DNA from: Acinetobacter phage ZZ1
Direction: 5' to 3' (one strand)
Sequence record: NC_018087.3
Length of the DNA stretch: 64,000 nt
In this document: positions 2,411-51,044 of the stretch, one piece after another
How the letters are laid out: each line of letters opens with the position of its first letter
Position numbering within the stretch: position 1 is the first letter of the stretch
Made by a program: the position numbers and the translations under genes
The notes under the pieces: model-generated
What the model was told of the DNA's origin: nothing
The model's input: only the letters and a program-made list of their open reading frames with translations
Databases searched by the model: none

Positions 2411-3016
2411 GTGGATATCAATATTGAAAACATTTTAAAAACATGGTTGCCTGAAGATATTTGTCAGGAATATATTGATATCTTACACAGACCTATAGTA
2501 GGCAAAACAGAAAAACATCATATCTTACCTAGATCTCTTTTTCCTGAACATATTAAAAATCCTAATAATTTAATTGAATTATCAATTTATGATCATCTTG
2601 AAGCACACGAATGTTTAGCAAAAACAAATGAACATAAAATGATTTTAGCTTTTAATTTTATGTTTACAGCTAATTATAGAAGATATTCTACTTTAACTGA
2701 AGATCAAAAATTAAAAGTAAAGGTAAAAAGAACTAAAGTACGACTTGCAATGTCTGATGTTAAATCAGAACAGGGAAAACTGTACATTGGAGAAAAAAAT
2801 CCTTTTTATGGAAAAACTCATTCTGATGAGACAAAAGCGATAATAAGCTCGCATCATAAAGGCAAAAAATTATCTGCCGATCATATTGCAATTCTTGTTG
2901 CTTGTCATAAAGGTAAACCAAAGCGCAAAGTTAAATGTCCTCATTGTGGTCAATTAATTGCAATACATGCTAAAAACCGACGACACTTTGATAATTGTGC
3001 ATATAAGGAGAATTAA
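2411..3016 (+). CDS. freestanding HNH homing endonuclease (T4 Mob family-like) inserted between genes 14 and 15
   Basis: N-terminal HNH motif (HHILPRSLFP...N..ELSIYDHLEAHE). Central NPFYGK.HS.ETK motif. C-terminal CPHCG zinc finger. Occupies an intergenic slot that T4 does not have. Confidence 0.7.
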   Translation: MDINIENILKTWLPEDICQEYIDILHRPIVGKTEKHHILPRSLFPEHIKNPNNLIELSIYDHLEAHECLAKTNEHKMILAFNFMFTANYRRYSTLTEDQKLKVKVKRTKVRLAMSDVKSEQGKLYIGEKNPFYGKTHSDETKAIISSHHKGKKLSADHIAILVACHKGKPKRKVKCPHCGQLIAIHAKNRRHFDNCAYKEN

Positions 3017-3069
3017 AATTTTTGGTCACTGGTACAACTCCTCTCTCCGTCGCTATTGTGTTTTAATGG

Positions 3070-3840
3070 GTGATTTATTCTCTCATGTACAAAGTAATGC
3101 GTCGGAGAGAAGGTGATAAAATAGAATTAATTAAAGTCCCTATTACATTTGCTTCAAAAGAACGCTTTATTATGAAACTAGATGCAAAAACATCAGTTAA
3201 TAATGGAGATGGTTCTATGGCAAAAGTGGAAACAATTTTGCCAAGAATGTGCTTAAGCTTGGTAGATTTAGTATATAACCCAACATATAAAACAAATATA
3301 ACAAACAGAACTATCAGGAATCCTGCGAGTAAAACCTCATTAATTTCGCAATATAATCCGGTTCCGGTTAAAATGATTTTTGAGTTAAGTGTTTACACTC
3401 GACATCAGGATGATATGTTTCAAATTATTGAACAAATATGGCCATATTTTCAACCACATTTTTCAACCCAAATGAAAGAATTGCATGGCAATGATATTAC
3501 ATTTGATAGAAATATCAGAGTTACAATGCAGTCGGTGGCCTTAGATAATCAATTAGAAACAGACAAAACTACACGACGCCGATTGGAAACTGCTTTTATA
3601 TTTGAAGTTAATGGGTGGTTATACCCACCTGTTGCTGAAATTGCTGGTGAAATTCGTACAATTTATATTGATCTTTTTGCAAATGAAAAAGAGTTAAATG
3701 CCTCAGGACGCTTTGAATCGGTTGACACTCAAGTATCGCCAGAAGATATAGATTATAATGATTGGGACGGTAATCTTATACAGTCAGTTTCGGCCAATGT
3801 TCCTATTCCTGTTGCACCTGAACCACCTCACCCAAGGTAG
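3070..3840 (+). CDS. 15: tail sheath stabiliser / tail completion gp15 (ORF as tracked; conserved N-terminal codons lie upstream in another frame, see findings)
   Basis: Matches T4 gp15 (VPIT.ASKE.F.MKL, ILPR..L.LVD, SQYNP.P.KMI.ELS..TR..DDMFQI.EQI.PYFQPHF, FEVNGW.YPPV, PEPP.PR). Confidence 0.85.
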
Positions 3841-16751: not shown

Positions 16752-17870
16752 TTAATAAATGATACCAACTTCAAATGCAGATCGATGAATAATTCGACCA
16801 TTACGAGATTCTTGAACATCAACTTCAGGGAAGTCTTCTAACATTTTTGCAAGAACCGCTAAATGGCAGTAATAGGGCGAATCCTCTTTTGTAGCGGATT
16901 TCCAATCTTTACCTTCTTTGGTTAATTTTTCGATGGCATCCATTACCCACCATCCAGTCCAAATATACGCAGAATTACGTTGTGGCAAAGGATGAACATA
17001 TACTAATGGGCATTCTTCAGGAACTTCAATTGTTTTAACTGAAATAGCCAATTCATTAGAAGTTACGGTAACAGAATCATAATCAGTAGCAGAAACAGCA
17101 ACAGTTAATTTTACAGTTTCAGTGCCAGCTTCCGTAGGTGTTTTTGTTAAAGTATTTCCCGTAGAATTATCAGACCATTTATACTCAACAGTTGCACCTT
17201 CTGGTATCCCATTCACTGCAGATGTTATTGTATATGATTCGCCTAATTTAATAACTGGCGTTTCAGTTGCAATAACAACCGTTGGAGACATAGTTTTATT
17301 TTTAATAGTAATTTGAACAGCATTTGATGTAGCTATGCCATCTTGATAGTTTGGTGCTTTAACGGTAACTTTACAAGTATATGATGTTTGGCTATTTTTA
17401 GCAGCTATAAGTGCAATACTTTTGGTTTTATTTGTGCTAGCACTACCCCAATCATAATCAATAGTAGCACCTTCTGGCGCCCCAGTAACTTCACATGTTA
17501 AAGTATATTGATCGCCAATTGTAACGAGTTCTTTATCCGTAGTAAGAAGAACTGTTAAATTCATAACGTTGTCTTCAACAGTTAAAGTAACAGTGTCTTC
17601 GGCTATTGAATCTTCAGTATCTTGAGCCTTTGTTGTTGCTATTACCTTAACAGAATATGTTCCTGCTTTTGCGGGCTTATACGTCATTGTTGATGCGGTT
17701 GAATCTTGTGCAGCACCATCTACAGTCCAAACATATGTTGTAATAGCATCAGGAATTTCTTCGGTACCACTGACTGTTGCAGTGAATAACTGCGATTTTC
17801 CTGTTGCAATTGATGCAGCGACTGGCGTAATTTTTACTGTTGTTGCCATTATTCTAGGCTCCGTTGTCAT
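16752..17870 (-). CDS. hoc: Hoc-like outer capsid decoration protein with tandem Ig-like repeats
   Basis: 372 aa against 376 in T4 Hoc. Opposite strand to genes 23/24, as in T4. Several ~90-aa beta-rich repeats with Ig-like Y.C/K.V patterns (TYSVKVIAT, YTCKVTVKA, VKLTVAVSA), followed by a distinct C-terminal domain. Confidence 0.55.
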   Translation of the reverse strand: MTTEPRIMATTVKITPVAASIATGKSQLFTATVSGTEEIPDAITTYVWTVDGAAQDSTASTMTYKPAKAGTYSVKVIATTKAQDTEDSIAEDTVTLTVEDNVMNLTVLLTTDKELVTIGDQYTLTCEVTGAPEGATIDYDWGSASTNKTKSIALIAAKNSQTSYTCKVTVKAPNYQDGIATSNAVQITIKNKTMSPTVVIATETPVIKLGESYTITSAVNGIPEGATVEYKWSDNSTGNTLTKTPTEAGTETVKLTVAVSATDYDSVTVTSNELAISVKTIEVPEECPLVYVHPLPQRNSAYIWTGWWVMDAIEKLTKEGKDWKSATKEDSPYYCHLAVLAKMLEDFPEVDVQESRNGRIIHRSAFEVGIIY

Positions 17871-17926
17871 TGTGAATGATTTTTCTAATGTTAGTTCTTG
17901 ATTGACGTAATCAGGATGAGATAATT

Positions 17927-18157
17927 TTATACACCTTTAATTGTGTGTTTACCAGGATGAGTAGCCGGTATAGCTAATTCATTTTCTTTAATAGATTCAA
18001 CAATATTATTATCCAAATACCATATAGGCTTATGGATAGTTAATTCATCGGAATTTTCTATTAAATCAAGTCCAGTTATATTATGTACAGCAGTTAATAA
18101 CTCACCCCAAGGCGATAACTTTATCATTAAGATATACTGGAACTTCCGGTATATCAT
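17927..18157 (-). CDS. hypothetical protein (76 aa)
   Basis: ORF only. Confidence 0.3.
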   Translation of the reverse strand: MIYRKFQYILMIKLSPWGELLTAVHNITGLDLIENSDELTIHKPIWYLDNNIVESIKENELAIPATHPGKHTIKGV

Positions 18158-20514: not shown

Positions 20515-20515
20515 C

Positions 20516-20542
20516 AAAAAGGAGCCGTTAGGCTCCTTTTTT
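20516..20542. terminator. bidirectional terminator (A5, GGAGCC-GTTA-GGCTCC, T6)
   Basis: Seen directly between convergent uvsW (+) and the minus-strand small-ORF block. Confidence 0.75.
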
Positions 20543-23083: not shown

Positions 23084-23095
23084 ATATATCTCTAT
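23084..23095. promoter_or_regulatory. palindromic TATTTATAAATA: back-to-back late promoters (TATAAATA on + at 23088..23095 for gene 51; on - at 23084..23091 for gene 26)
   Basis: Seen directly in the 67-bp divergent intergenic region. Confidence 0.55.
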
Positions 23096-23125
23096 TTATA
23101 AATATTTTAATAAACGGAGACCTCT

Positions 23126-23880
23126 ATGGCTAATATTATTAGATGTAAATTACCAGACGGCGTTCATCGTTTCAAACCATTTACTGTTGCTGATTACCGT
23201 GACTTTTTACTGGTTAGAAATGATATGGTCAGTAAAGACGAAGAAGAACAAGAAGTTTTGGTGAATGAGCTTGCTGCAGATTATTTTGGTGAATACCCAG
23301 AATCATGGCAGCATTATTTTTTTTTCAAGCCTTTACGGGATCAATTGGTAAAACTAAAATTCCAATTGTATTTGAATGTCCTGTATGCGGCAAAAAAACA
23401 AAGCGATTATTTAATTTGTCTCAGGGACCTTTAGATAACCCTAAAGTACAGTTAAATGACGATACTTATATTTCATTTAAATTTCCAGAAAATTTAGAAG
23501 ACGAACCAAGTCAATTGATATTAAAAAATGTAGATAAAATTGAATATCAAGGTTCTACTTATAATTGGATGGAATTATCGAAAGAAACACAAGATGCAAT
23601 AATTTCAATGATTAATTTTGAAAAGTTTGAAGCTATTGTTAAAATGTTAAAGCCCCTGCATTTTGAAATGAAATTAAAGTGCTGTGAAGAACATACCTTG
23701 GTTTATGATGATTTATGTTCTATTTTTAAATTATTAATAAATCCTGACGAAGTATTTCCATTTTATGAAATTAATCATATCTTAATTAAAAATAATTATG
23801 ATATTAATTCAATTATGGCAATGCTTCCAGCAGAACGTTCAATTGCTTTATCTTTGATTGAAAAGGATAATAAAAAATGA
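23126..23880 (+). CDS. 51: baseplate hub assembly catalyst gp51, split between two frames at a T9 run (23317..23325)
   Basis: ORFs 23126..23434 and 23305..23880 overlap in adjacent frames. The joined length is about 251 aa against 249 for T4 gp51. Conserved position between 26 and 27. Confidence 0.65.
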
Positions 23881-25466
23881 CAGTGCAACAAAAACCAGGA
23901 TATCCTAACGTTAGTATTAAGTTGTATGAAGATTATGATGCTTGGACGGATAATCGATTTGTAGAATTGGCTGCAACATTTACAACATTAACAATGCGTG
24001 ATGGTCTATACGGAAGAAACGAAGGTATCTTGCAATTTTATGATAATAAAAATATGCATATGAAAATGGATGGAGATCAAATTGTTCAGATTTCATTATC
24101 TAATGCAAATTCTAAAGATGTAGTAACTCGATTATATGGTGTTAAAGATAGTTCTGTTTCTGTTGATTCTAAAGGCGATAATATTATTGCGTTTAATTTA
24201 GCACCCTTACATGTTGTTGAAAATGTGTTATTTAGCAGAGCATTTTTTGCTAATGCTACTGAAACTATTCAAACTATGATCGATTCAATTTATCAGAAAC
24301 GTGCCGAGATTAAGCCTAAAGTAGAAGGTATTAACATTTATGTACCTCGTGTTGCTTGGGTTAATGGTATTACTGAATATATGGATTATGTTCGTGAAAT
24401 TGGTATTTCTGTTGATTCGGAAACACATGCCTTTGTTTGGGAAGATATTTCTGGTATTAATATTACTGATTATAAATTTTTAATTGATCAAAAACCTCGC
24501 GTTATGGTTGTCGGGGATCAAAAACAAGTCGGTTCTTATGTTCAGCATATGGAATATGGTCTGGCTTATGATTTTACATGGTTAACTAAAACAAATCGCA
24601 ATATACGCAACCCTTTAACTGATGTTACAATATATTCACATTCATTTAATGATAAAGAAATTCAGCGTATTTCAATTGGAGAAGGTACAAATACTGTTGT
24701 TGTATCTCGTTCTGGTGGATATTCTGAAATGACATATCGTAATGGATATGAAGAGGCCTTTAGATTATTAACAATGGCCCAATATGATGGTTATGCTACA
24801 TGCAAATTAGTTGGTGATTTTACTTTAACGCCTGGTGTCAAATTGAATTTCGGCGATCGTAAAAATCAATTCGCTACTGATTTTTATATTGATGAAGTCG
24901 TACATGTTATTACAAATAATTCATCAGAGACACATTTATACATGTTTACTAATGGTAAAGACTTAGTTCCTGTTGAAATTGAAAAAATTAAAAATGAAAT
25001 CGAAACTATCACACCGCCTTCAGATACAACACAACCAGAAGCGATGGGTGATAAGAAAGGTGCTCAATGGGATTTAGATAAATTGGCCGAAGTTGTCACA
25101 AGAAATGCTCAAGGACGTAAAGCTACTGGTAAATGTGCATTGTATGTTCGTAAGGCATTACAGGCAGCACAATTGCAAAGTTTCTTTGCCGGTGGTTTAG
25201 GAAATGCAAATGAAATGGCTAAACCTCTTGAAAATATGGGCTGGATTGCTGTTGGTCAAAATGTTAAAAACGTTAAAAAAGGCGATATTTCAATATTCAT
25301 GAAAACTAATACCCCATTAGGTTCACAGTATGGACATATTGCGATCTTTAATGGAAGTCAATGGGTGTCAGATTTTATTCAAAATAGTGTACAACCTAAT
25401 TCAAAAGATAACTTAACTTATACAGTTTATAGAGCACGTTATGGTTATAGTGCGGGAGGTAATTAA
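23877..25466 (+). CDS. 27: baseplate hub subunit gp27 with a C-terminal ~135-aa CHAP/NlpC-P60-like extension
   Basis: The first ~390 aa are collinear with T4 gp27 (YPN.S.KL...YDAW..NRFVELAAT.TTLTMRD.LYGRNEG.LQFYD.KN, SEMTYRNGYEEA.RL.TMAQYDGYA, HLYMFTN). The extra C-terminal domain carries a Cys (GKCALYVRKAL) and a GHIAIFNG His motif. Confidence 0.9.
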   Translation: MTVQQKPGYPNVSIKLYEDYDAWTDNRFVELAATFTTLTMRDGLYGRNEGILQFYDNKNMHMKMDGDQIVQISLSNANSKDVVTRLYGVKDSSVSVDSKGDNIIAFNLAPLHVVENVLFSRAFFANATETIQTMIDSIYQKRAEIKPKVEGINIYVPRVAWVNGITEYMDYVREIGISVDSETHAFVWEDISGINITDYKFLIDQKPRVMVVGDQKQVGSYVQHMEYGLAYDFTWLTKTNRNIRNPLTDVTIYSHSFNDKEIQRISIGEGTNTVVVSRSGGYSEMTYRNGYEEAFRLLTMAQYDGYATCKLVGDFTLTPGVKLNFGDRKNQFATDFYIDEVVHVITNNSSETHLYMFTNGKDLVPVEIEKIKNEIETITPPSDTTQPEAMGDKKGAQWDLDKLAEVVTRNAQGRKATGKCALYVRKALQAAQLQSFFAGGLGNANEMAKPLENMGWIAVGQNVKNVKKGDISIFMKTNTPLGSQYGHIAIFNGSQWVSDFIQNSVQPNSKDNLTYTVYRARYGYSAGGN

Positions 25467-31916: not shown

Positions 31917-32606
31917 ATGTTATTAGAAAATATGACAATTGATCAATTAAACGAAGTTTTTGACGCCGATAATTTGGGTACAATTTATCCCGTTCAAGAT
32001 TTAACCCCAAAGGCAAAAGTACCTCAAATGCTTCATATTAAAGTGCCTGGTACTAATGATCTATTAGTTCGATTAACTCATTTGGATACTGTTGGGACTC
32101 GTGTAAAAGCAGTTCAACCTGGTGATAAAACCGTTCAAGTGTTTTTAATGTCACTATCTGAAAAAGGAAATATTACAGACTTTCGTGGTGGTTTAGGTAC
32201 CGATCCAGTTGGTGCAATTAATACTATTTTTACAACCGTTTTAGATATTTCTAAAAAATTTAGATTTGATTCCGTATTATTCCGTATCCCTAAAAATAAA
32301 ATGAAAGGTCAAGAACGTGCGGTACAACGAGTTCTTTCAAGATTAATTAAAAATCGTTCAGGTGGTCGTTTCACAACATTAGATGAAATTGAACGCGATG
32401 AATCAAAGAAATTTAGTTTTGTAATGGCGTATCGTAAAAATTCAGATGTTTTAGATCAAGTCCCATTATCGGATAATATTGAAAAAGTTGAGACTAAGGC
32501 AGGTGATACTTTTATTGATAAAGATACTGGAAAGCAAGTTTCTAAGGCAGAGGCGGTGGCTTCCGAAATTGTTAAAAAAGCTGAAAAGATTACAACAAAA
32601 ATGTAA
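31917..32606 (+). CDS. Alt paralog, N-terminal domain ORF (229 aa); upstream half of a frameshifted alt-like gene
   Basis: About 70% identical to the Alt N-terminus. Ends with KITTKM* where Alt continues. The downstream frame continues the homology. Confidence 0.75.
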   Translation: MLLENMTIDQLNEVFDADNLGTIYPVQDLTPKAKVPQMLHIKVPGTNDLLVRLTHLDTVGTRVKAVQPGDKTVQVFLMSLSEKGNITDFRGGLGTDPVGAINTIFTTVLDISKKFRFDSVLFRIPKNKMKGQERAVQRVLSRLIKNRSGGRFTTLDEIERDESKKFSFVMAYRKNSDVLDQVPLSDNIEKVETKAGDTFIDKDTGKQVSKAEAVASEIVKKAEKITTKM

Positions 32607-34066
32607 TTTCAAAAACTAAAGTAAGTAAGCAAGCTTTAATCGCAGCCCTTTATGGTGAAATCGAAACTATTAAAATGAGTACCGCTGCTCTTGAAGTTTT
32701 TAATGATTTACAATCAACAGCAGAACCTTTATCATCAAAAGGTGTAGAACTTTCAAAAGGCGTTTCTATGGCTGAAAGTTCAATGAAGAATAGTTTAACT
32801 ACTTTATCATATAATCTTGAGCGAGTTTCTCAAGTTGGCCGTGATCAACGTTTTGTGAATCACCCTGCGACTAATTTGGTAACTCATGTTGAGTATCAAT
32901 TAGCAAGCAATATTGGTTGGCCGATGGCTGAAGCGGAATCATTTGGTCGCTATCTATTGGGTCGAATTTCAGATGTTTTACGTAAAGCAAAACCGCTTCA
33001 ATTAAATAATGCATTTAAAGATATCGCAACGGCTGCCTTAGAACATGAAGGATTTAGAAAATTAACTCTTGCACAACGTTTAGATGTTATTGCACCTATT
33101 GTGACTTATATTATTTATGATACATCAGAAGATATGTCTAGAGTTGTTTCACGATCGCCTAATTTGTATGGCACTGCAAAATGGTCTCAGGCTCAAGCAG
33201 AAGTTGTTAAAAATTATTGTGATACGTCATATGACTTAATTAATGGTTTCTTGCGAGGTATTAATAACCCAGGTTCGCCTAAACGTCTGTATGAATTGGT
33301 TGAAACTATGGACTCAGTATTTGAAGAGCATGGGATTCGTCTTAAGAAAGGCACATTATTATACCGTGGCCAAAAATTAACAAAGCAAGATTTTGTTAAA
33401 ACTATGGAAAATAAAATGTTCTATTTCCGAAATTATGTTTCCACTTCAATGACTCCAATCATTTATGGTATATCGCAATTTGGTGAAGGTAGTATTGCTG
33501 CAATGTTAGCTGATAATCCAACTAACGCAGATACGCATACACCTGAAGAAATTGTTCAATCTGCTCAAGGTGAAGTTTCACCTCAAGATGAACTTATGAA
33601 TATGACATATTATGGTGAGCGTGAAGTTCCAAGTATTTCATATATTATTTCGGGTGCGGATAAACTTAAAGTGATTATCCCAGGTTCATTAGCCGAATAT
33701 TATGATGAACAGGAAGTTATTCTTCCTCGAGGTACAGTCATTAAGTATAATACTGTAATAGGTGGAAACCTTGATAAAACTGCCGATGGTTCTGCTCTAT
33801 TAAAAAATATTATAGTTGAAGCCGAAGTTTTAGATCCATCTTTATTAAAAGAATCTGTTGTTTATGATGGCGATCTTTTCATGGAAACAGGTGAAATGGT
33901 TGCAGTTGATTTAATTACAGAAGATGTGGCAGAAGTTACGGAATCACCATCTAATTCCTTTTCAGCACAATTCCGTAAACCAAGATTCGAAAATGAGTCT
34001 AATGAAATTTTACAAGCTTTATCTGCAATAGCATTTAAAAATATTAAACCTAAATTTATTAGCTAA
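32585..34066 (+). CDS. Alt paralog, ADP-ribosyltransferase domain portion (frame open from 32585; first ATG at 32675), continuing the 31917 ORF after a -1 frame change at ACAAAAATG (~32600)
   Basis: The upstream-open frame encodes ISKTKVSKQALIAALYG, matching Alt's IAAKSKISRRAAFDAMYN. ART motifs are present: YRGQKL (Arg), YFRNYVSTS (STS), EQEVILPRGT (Glu). Confidence 0.75.
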   Translation, partial: KDYNKNVISKTKVSKQALIAALYGEIETIKMSTAALEVFNDLQSTAEPLSSKGVELSKGVSMAESSMKNSLTTLSYNLERVSQVGRDQRFVNHPATNLVTHVEYQLASNIGWPMAEAESFGRYLLGRISDVLRKAKPLQLNNAFKDIATAALEHEGFRKLTLAQRLDVIAPIVTYIIYDTSEDMSRVVSRSPNLYGTAKWSQAQAEVVKNYCDTSYDLINGFLRGINNPGSPKRLYELVETMDSVFEEHGIRLKKGTLLYRGQKLTKQDFVKTMENKMFYFRNYVSTSMTPIIYGISQFGEGSIAAMLADNPTNADTHTPEEIVQSAQGEVSPQDELMNMTYYGEREVPSISYIISGADKLKVIIPGSLAEYYDEQEVILPRGTVIKYNTVIGGNLDKTADGSALLKNIIVEAEVLDPSLLKESVVYDGDLFMETGEMVAVDLITEDVAEVTESPSNSFSAQFRKPRFENESNEILQALSAIAFKNIKPKFIS

Positions 34067-50124: not shown

Positions 50125-51044
50125 TTATAAACCTTTTAACAAGTCATCTAAACCAGGATCAGCAGCCGGAGCAGCTTTAACAGGTTCAGGTGTTGCAGCA
50201 GGTTCTACATCAGTTTGAGCGGTAGCAGTGAAACCAGCCATTTGCTCTTCAAAATTATCAAGTTCATTTGCAATATTATCAGCCTGAGTTGCGGCTTGTG
50301 CTGCTGCACCACCCATAACAGCAGTACCCATAATACGTTTAAATGTTTCTTCATTTTTTTCAAAATATTGAATTGATCTTTTGCAGTTAACACATCAATA
50401 TCAACCATATTATCGATTAATTGTTTTTGATATGCTTCATCTTCAATATTTTGAATCTTAGATTGACCTAAGAATTTACATTCGTCGTAGTTGCTAAAAC
50501 CACCAACTTGCTTAACTTTAAGAATAAAGTTTGCACCTTCGAATGGACATGTTACATCAACAGGAATTTCACCCATATCAGCATTTACTTCAATCATCGC
50601 ATTGATCTTATCCATAACTTTTTGACCAAAACGATATTTAAACACTTGACCTTCATTTTTAGGATTAGCTGGGTCTTTAATAACCAAGATGTTACACCAG
50701 AAAGAAGTTTTGCGTTTAATTTTACCATACAATTGATTGTCTGTATTATATAAATCATTATCAGAAATATATTTACATACAGGGCATGATTCAAAATCGC
50801 CATGAGTAGATGTACAGTTTTCGATATACCATTTACCGTTATTTTTGAAACCGTGGTTTACAAGTTTAACAAATGGGATTGATTCGGGTGTACGACCAGG
50901 CAAGAAACGAATTACAGCAGTACCATTTTTTGCATTGTCTAGCTCAAGTTTCCATTCTTTACCATCGGCTTCATTAAATGAACCTGCACCTTTCATTGCT
51001 TGAAGTTGAGCGGCTAATTGAGCTGGGTCTTTACGTTGAAACAT
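50125..51044 (-). CDS. 32: single-stranded DNA-binding protein gp32, with a frame change at an A7 run (50354..50360): body in ORF 50205..51044, acidic C-terminal tail in ORF 50125..50331
   Basis: N-terminus matches T4 gp32 (MF.RK..A.LAAQ...G..F...D.EWKL.LDNA.NG.AVIRFLP). The tail ending LDDLLKGL matches the T4 gp32 C-terminus LDDLLNDL but is in the -1 frame. Joined length is about 306 aa against 301 in T4. Confidence 0.85.

Follow-up and report, generated by a model that had tools for sequence, protein, structure and literature searches.

Results

The gene 51 locus of phage ZZ1

The DNA analyzed here, referred to as the window, is a 64-kb stretch of the Acinetobacter phage ZZ1 genome corresponding to positions 96001..160000 of its revised published version. 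An ORF map, together with the Pfam assignments of the neighbors, gives the gene order 25, 26 (minus strand), and then 51, 27, 28, and 29. Gene 51 (23126..23880, plus strand), which encodes the baseplate hub assembly catalyst or chaperone gp51, sits between the divergent gene 26 and gene 27, a conserved place in the T4-like baseplate hub cluster. In T4, gp51 is essential and is needed for hub assembly, and it is not present in the virion (PMC3004832). In the deposited sequence, the ZZ1 gene is interrupted by a one-base deficit at a run of T residues and is thereby divided between two plus-strand ORFs, at 23126..23434 (102 aa) and 23305..23880 (191 aa), the downstream one lying in the -1 frame of the upstream one. 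The ORF pair, its 130-nt overlap, and the run of nine T residues (T9) at 23317..23325 had been described in an earlier, sequence-only reading of this DNA, and all of them were confirmed.

The 102-aa ORF is unannotated in the ZZ1 record; its residues 1 to 66 are the true N terminus of gp51, and residues 67 to 102 form an out-of-frame tail. The 191-aa ORF is annotated as CDS203, "gp51 baseplate hub assembly catalyst," and an exact-protein look-up found it identical to AHI44677.1 / YP_009001469.1. In the supplement to the ZZ1 paper, CDS202 occupies 118414..119058 and CDS203 (gp51, 191 aa) occupies 119305..119880, the latter being window positions 23305..23880 (PMC4177764). The CDS203 row also carries the RBS/start string TTAATAAACGGAGACCTCTATG, which is found before the ATG at 23126 rather than before the annotated start (23305), so that the published ZZ1 table contradicts itself at this entry (PMC4177764).

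The true start of gene 51 is marked by a GGAG Shine-Dalgarno sequence on the plus strand (23116..23119), 6 nt before the ATG at 23126, while no Shine-Dalgarno sequence is visible upstream of the ATG at 23305, inside the true gene. The T4 late-promoter consensus TATAAATA lies at 23097..23104 on the plus strand, and the ATG at 23126 follows 22 nt downstream. On the minus strand, an overlapping mirror copy (23093..23100) faces gene 26. Between the divergent genes 26 and 51, TATTTATAAATA (23093..23104) carries TATAAATA on both strands with a 4-nt overlap, an arrangement that would form a compact promoter for late transcription in both directions. Across the window, the motif shows no enrichment (15 found versus 11.8 expected), so that it is its position alone that makes it suggestive as the late promoter of gene 51.

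The downstream neighbor, the hub protein gp27 (23877..25466), is 529 aa long, a length shared with W16, Henu6, and the metagenomic and Logan contigs described below. T4 gp27, at about 390 aa, is much shorter. The gp27 genes of phi1_092060, KARL-1, and AB1I1M-1 measure 1584 nt (527 aa), and the ZZ1 supplement lists a 528-aa gp27 for Acj9 (PMC4177764). Residues 416 to 491 of ZZ1 gp27 give a C-terminal CHAP-like match (Pfam CHAP, E 4.5e-5; the score of 24.3 bits is slightly below the cut-off, 26), and this C-terminal domain may possibly be a peptidoglycan hydrolase.

The two ORFs join within a T9 run

A -1 join at T_TTT_TTT gives a conceptual gp51 of 251 aa, the size that the sequence-only reading had estimated. 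The PF12322 (T4_baseplate) profile matches residues 1 to 202 of this product along its whole length (positions 1 to 219 of 219) without interruption at the junction, with a score of 187.7 bits (E 3e-55; curated cut-off, 24.5). Searched separately, the upstream ORF covers profile positions 1 to 72 and the downstream ORF positions 69 to 219; since these matches meet at positions 69 to 72, the reading frames join inside the T run. The joined product is identical to W16 gp51 at 249 of 251 residues (99.2%).

The upstream frame reads CAT TAT TTT TTT TTC AAG at the frame break. The T9 run, on the plus strand, contains T_TTT_TTT (23317..23323), and the proposal that this is an X_XXY_YYZ heptamer (U UUU UUU) in the upstream frame is formally correct. 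Across the junction, the conceptual -1 join reads ...WQHYFFFQAFTGSIGK / HYFFFQAFTGSIGK, and the zero-frame peptide is HYFFFKPLR. Dinucleotide-preserving shuffles of the 64-kb window would be expected to yield 13.2 A/T runs of at least 9; the T9 at 23317..23325 is the only one, and the next-longest run is a single T8.

Near-identical relatives carry an intact gene 51

We compared the region with five independent ZZ1-like assemblies, namely, W16 (Korea), Henu6 (China), a 167-kb scaffold from an ENA metagenome, and two SRA assemblies from Logan; around gene 51, their identity to the window is 97.8 to 99.8%. At the site, every one of them has CATTAT-A-TTTTTTT-A-CAAGCC (Y-I-F-L-Q), and gene 51 is continuous in all five, at 756 nt, and encodes an intact 251-aa protein. 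ZZ1 alone reads CATTAT-TTTTTTTT-CAAGCC, which is one base shorter and has lost both flanking A residues; the change from A-T7-A (9 nt) to T8 (8 nt) corresponds to one deletion plus one A-to-T substitution. Apart from these two T-run changes, no difference separates ZZ1 from the ENA scaffold between 21214 and 26362 (5.1 kb) or from W16 between 22658 and 25500. The probability that two independent events in such a stretch lie no more than 9 nt apart is about 0.003, and this tight clustering indicates either one local event or one local miscall.

Gapped DNA pattern scans of IMG/VR viral and JGI metagenome contigs found no variant forms of the site, T9 and T10 included. By exact look-up in a collection of 15 billion proteins, both the product of the 102-aa ORF and the joined protein with the F-F-F junction were absent, and the 191-aa protein was found only on ZZ1's own 166,687-bp sequence. 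The intact relatives themselves contain ATT TTT TTA, a U_UUU_UUA heptamer, ahead of the same predicted hairpin as that described below for ZZ1 (about 1819..1825 in L001, with equivalents in L002, L008, L009, and L011). This heptamer is not conserved in Lazarusvirus and probably reflects no more than AT-rich codons for I, F, and L.

gp51 is continuous throughout the family

More distant Acinetobacter phages with a DNA identity of about 73% (e.g., KARL-1, Lazarusvirus) read TAT-YTG-TTC-TTA or TAC-ATA-TTT-CTG at the junction, have no T run, and keep the gene continuous. A tblastn search with the joined gp51 matched 1,378 phage records, with at least 80% of gp51 covered in 1,373 of them, and the true gp51 matches in an evenly spaced sample of these records aligned in one frame in 39 of 39 cases. 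The joined ORF covers the whole PF12322 profile of the T4 gp51/T4_baseplate family (PF12322 plus Gp51_C, PF28602) and can be aligned over its entire length with the gp51 proteins of Tequatrovirus, Mosigvirus, Jiaodavirus, Winklervirus, Tulanevirus, and Pseudotevenvirus, and it shares with the T4 system the gene order 25, 26 (minus strand), 51, 27, 28, 29. It departs from the family in one respect, the base missing from the gene in the deposited ZZ1 sequence; every other member examined has a single ORF. In a seven-genus alignment, the junction follows the pattern [Y/F/H/N]-[I/L]-F-[L/I/T]. The conceptual ZZ1 junction, Y-F-F-F, has F at both flanking positions, and ZZ1 is unique in this among the aligned members, all 10 others having I/L at the first and L/I/T at the second.

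Signals for recoding

A bulged hairpin is predicted at 23329..23391 (plus strand), starting 5 nt past the heptamer, with a minimum free energy of -20.9 kcal/mol (z score, -2.84; matched in stability by 1 of 200 shuffles). W16, Henu6, L008, and L011, all of which lack the frame break, carry the identical hairpin sequence, and L009 shows three silent changes. A consensus fold of the ZZ1-like contig L009 with the three ~73%-identical Acinetobacter phages reached -3.4 kcal/mol and did not reproduce it, and the hairpin is probably incidental. Folding a segment centered on the slippery site gave nothing unusual (z score, +0.79). We looked in the sequence upstream of the T run for a Shine-Dalgarno-like element and saw none, an Rfam search of the site returned no match, and we found no report of a gp51 frameshift in the literature searched. 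The zero-frame product would consist of 66 gp51 residues followed by 36 out-of-frame residues and cuts PF12322 at about position 70 of 219. As for transcriptional slippage, nine A or T residues in a row are slipped on efficiently in bacteria (PMC5009743), and the sequence-only reading was correct that T9 is a known length for this. U7 and A7 are underrepresented in all frames of E. coli genes, plausibly because of slippage (PMC4066793). The ZZ1 run falls in the length range of such sites, about 9 or more, but run and break are not conserved, the relatives having T7 flanked by A residues: none of the five near-identical assemblies and none of the 39 sampled phage records has the frame break and shift site.

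Other frame breaks in the ZZ1 record

Comparison of the whole window with W16 and Henu6 revealed nine single-base indels at which both relatives agree against ZZ1. Besides that of gene 51, four of these ZZ1-only indels break conserved genes, those for gp15, Hoc, Alt-2, and gp32, and a run of 9 is absent from all four sites. In the gene for the tail sheath stabilizer gp15 (2958..3840), an extra A at 3091 (GTACAAAGT in ZZ1 versus GTACAAGT in both W16 and Henu6; +1 in ZZ1) leaves products of 52 and 256 aa where W16 has 293 aa, and this split is probably another error of the ZZ1 record. The Hoc-like gene (16752..18157) is broken at 17931 (-1 in ZZ1) into 76 and 372 aa and is intact in W16 and Henu6, at 1407 nt (468 aa). 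The gene for the single-stranded-DNA-binding protein gp32 (50125..51044) has a one-base deletion at 50366 (-1 in ZZ1), giving 279 and 68 aa versus 306 aa in the relatives. ZZ1 gp32 loses its conserved acidic C terminus through this deletion, while the correct downstream frame is 100% identical to that of Henu6, as expected from an error or an extremely recent event. Two further ZZ1-only deletions (50055 and 50058) are intergenic, just downstream of gp32. T4 genetics has established gp15 and gp32 as essential, with gp32 required in large amounts.

The second Alt-like ADP-ribosyltransferase gene (Alt-2; 31917..34066) lacks a T at 32597 (-1 in ZZ1), which leaves ORFs of 229 and 463 aa. W16 has one 716-aa ORF here, and the Henu6 gene is split at a different place from that of ZZ1. 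The Alt-like ORFs of the window, of 695, 229, and 463 aa, have the lengths given for ZZ1 CDS209 to CDS211 (PMC4177764). The ZZ1 paper reads this break as an evolutionary "splitting event" (PMC4177764), which is probably the same kind of artefact. The ZZ1 authors themselves attribute many split genes to assembly errors, and their PCR amendment changed the genome length from 166,682 to 166,687 bp (PMC4177764). The CDS table of the revised genome (166,687 bp), which postdates this correction, still contains the gene 51 break.

Elsewhere in the window, there is a terminator-like hairpin at about 20515..20540 (GGAGCC-GTTA-GGCTCC). In W16 and Henu6, its 4-nt loop reads TAAC, an exact inversion that could reflect either flipping of the loop between the identical stems or a strand artefact of assembly.

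Discussion

The break in gene 51 is unique to the ZZ1 record, which holds other errors of the same type. Based on these sequence comparisons, we consider that the split is probably an artefact of the deposited sequence (probability of about 0.85), in which a local miscall at A-T7-A would have lost one base. Support for this reading comes from the intact gene in the relatives, the clustering of the two changes, and the continuity of gp51 across the family. It is further favored by the other ZZ1-only frame breaks, by the assembly-derived split genes that the ZZ1 authors describe, and by the F at both flanking positions of the junction in the conceptual product, which is unusual for the family. 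The virion DNA of ZZ1 would then read like that of its relatives at this site. Three observations stand against an artefact. The change has produced a perfect T9, which is both a canonical -1 heptamer and of a length at which slippage is efficient, and a random error need not give that; the predicted hairpin starts 5 nt past the heptamer; and the break outlasted the PCR amendment by the ZZ1 authors.

Of the two explanations offered by the sequence-only reading, a homopolymer sequencing indel and genuine recoding, the former holds in part. That the record is in error is strongly supported by the five intact relatives, the other ZZ1-only indels, and the authors' own split genes; that it is a simple miscount of the run length is not, since the relatives read A-T7-A and not T10. 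We also considered a true T10 at the site (Y-F-F-F-Q), which we regard as less likely: besides an undercall, it calls for two A-to-T substitutions within 5 kb that are identical in every other respect, and the family shows F at neither position, which makes it less parsimonious than A-T7-A. Genuine recoding finds no support, as neither the frame break nor T9 occurs in any relative examined, and no Shine-Dalgarno-like stimulator is visible upstream of the site.

If T9 is instead present in the phage, it could be a recent, stock-specific complex mutation from A-T7-A to T9, with full-length gp51 partly rescued by slippage through an extra U added by RNA polymerase on T9, a ribosomal -1 shift on U_UUU_UUU, or both. 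Such a mutation is not without appeal. T9 forms an X_XXY_YYZ heptamer in the right frame with a predicted hairpin 5 nt beyond it, runs of nine A or T residues slip efficiently during bacterial transcription (PMC5009743), and the downstream frame is undamaged, with 249 of 251 residues as in W16. Moreover, gp51 is catalytic and, although needed for assembly, absent from the particle (PMC3004832), so a low yield of full-length protein could suffice. We nevertheless regard it as unlikely, given that T9 is in no independent sequence, that the viral and metagenome pattern scans were empty, and that, in the protein collection, the 102-aa product is missing and the 191-aa product occurs on the ZZ1 sequence only. 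Equivalent ZZ1-only breaks, including those in the genes for gp15 and gp32, lack a run of 9, and for gp15 and gp32 it is not plausible that low-level rescue would be enough. The split genes that the ZZ1 authors trace to assembly (PMC4177764) weigh in the same direction.

Two further readings are less probable still. In one of them, gene 51 would be truly split, with separate polypeptides of 102 and 191 aa, or would be a pseudogene. Although the ZZ1 annotation gives only the 191-aa ORF as gp51, we find this very improbable, since the break lies inside a single Pfam domain, neither half is degenerate compared with the intact relatives, and in T4 the protein has been described as essential (PMC3004832). 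Internal restart at 23305 is rejected for want of a visible ribosome-binding site at that ATG and because of the position of the break within the domain. Still less credible is an evolved signal, either a programmed -1 frameshift or programmed transcriptional slippage, that would set gp51 dosage or give two products. The slippery heptamer and the predicted hairpin at canonical spacing recall such systems, and some records call gp51 homologs "tape measure protein assembly chaperone," a class with a conserved -1 frameshift. Yet break and T9 are missing from every relative, including genomes of 99.8% identity, and from the sample of the 1,378 records. Relatives without a break, in which no shift is required, have the hairpin sequence unchanged, the neighboring genus does not conserve it, and neither a visible upstream Shine-Dalgarno-like element nor an Rfam match accompanies it. 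The zero-frame product would be a truncated PF12322 domain (about 70 of 219 positions) with 36 out-of-frame residues. The lack of conservation effectively refutes programmed recoding.

Comparison with documented systems points the same way. Database frame breaks that arise from sequencing or assembly errors in AT-rich or homopolymer stretches resemble the ZZ1 case in that the break is confined to a single record and falls at the longest T tract of the region, in that the flanking kilobases match independent assemblies and similar unique indels lie elsewhere in the record, and in that the authors acknowledge assembly-derived split genes. The ZZ1 change differs from them in not being a pure run-length miscount, a flanking A being read as T to give the perfect T9. 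Corrective slippage on A/T runs of 9, as in Thermus dnaX (T9), Shigella mxiE, and Citrobacter tssM, is similar in having a run at which one additional mRNA base restores the frame; however, those cases are backed by RNA or protein data or by conservation, whereas the ZZ1 T9 is not conserved. The frameshift of the lambda G/GT tail assembly chaperones shares with ZZ1 a -1 heptamer and, through the tape-measure chaperone annotation given to some gp51 proteins, a name. There, the shift extends a complete short product, in an arrangement conserved across phages, and the ORFs lie immediately upstream of the tape-measure gene. In contrast, zero-frame translation in ZZ1 would cut the domain short and add nonsense residues, genes 27 and 28 lie between gene 51 and gene 29, and gene 51 is a single ORF in all relatives.

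If the split is a record artefact, as we propose, the real ZZ1 gene 51 would be a single continuous ORF of 756 nt, from 23126 to the stop codon at 23878..23880, starting behind the late-promoter-like TATAAATA and the GGAG ribosome-binding site. Conventional translation, without recoding, would yield the 251-aa gp51 hub assembly chaperone. Should T9 turn out to be real, it would represent a spontaneous, compensated indel in a morphogenesis gene of a T4-like phage, a modest, single-isolate case of compensatory slippage, a mechanism that is already well documented. The probable artefact matters mainly for curation: in the ZZ1 record, gp51 is cut to 191 aa and the genes for gp15, Hoc, Alt-2, and gp32 are broken, and the species Zedzedvirus zz1 apparently takes its name from ZZ1. 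Mining of phage genomes for recoding signals would flag the T9 site of ZZ1 as a false positive.
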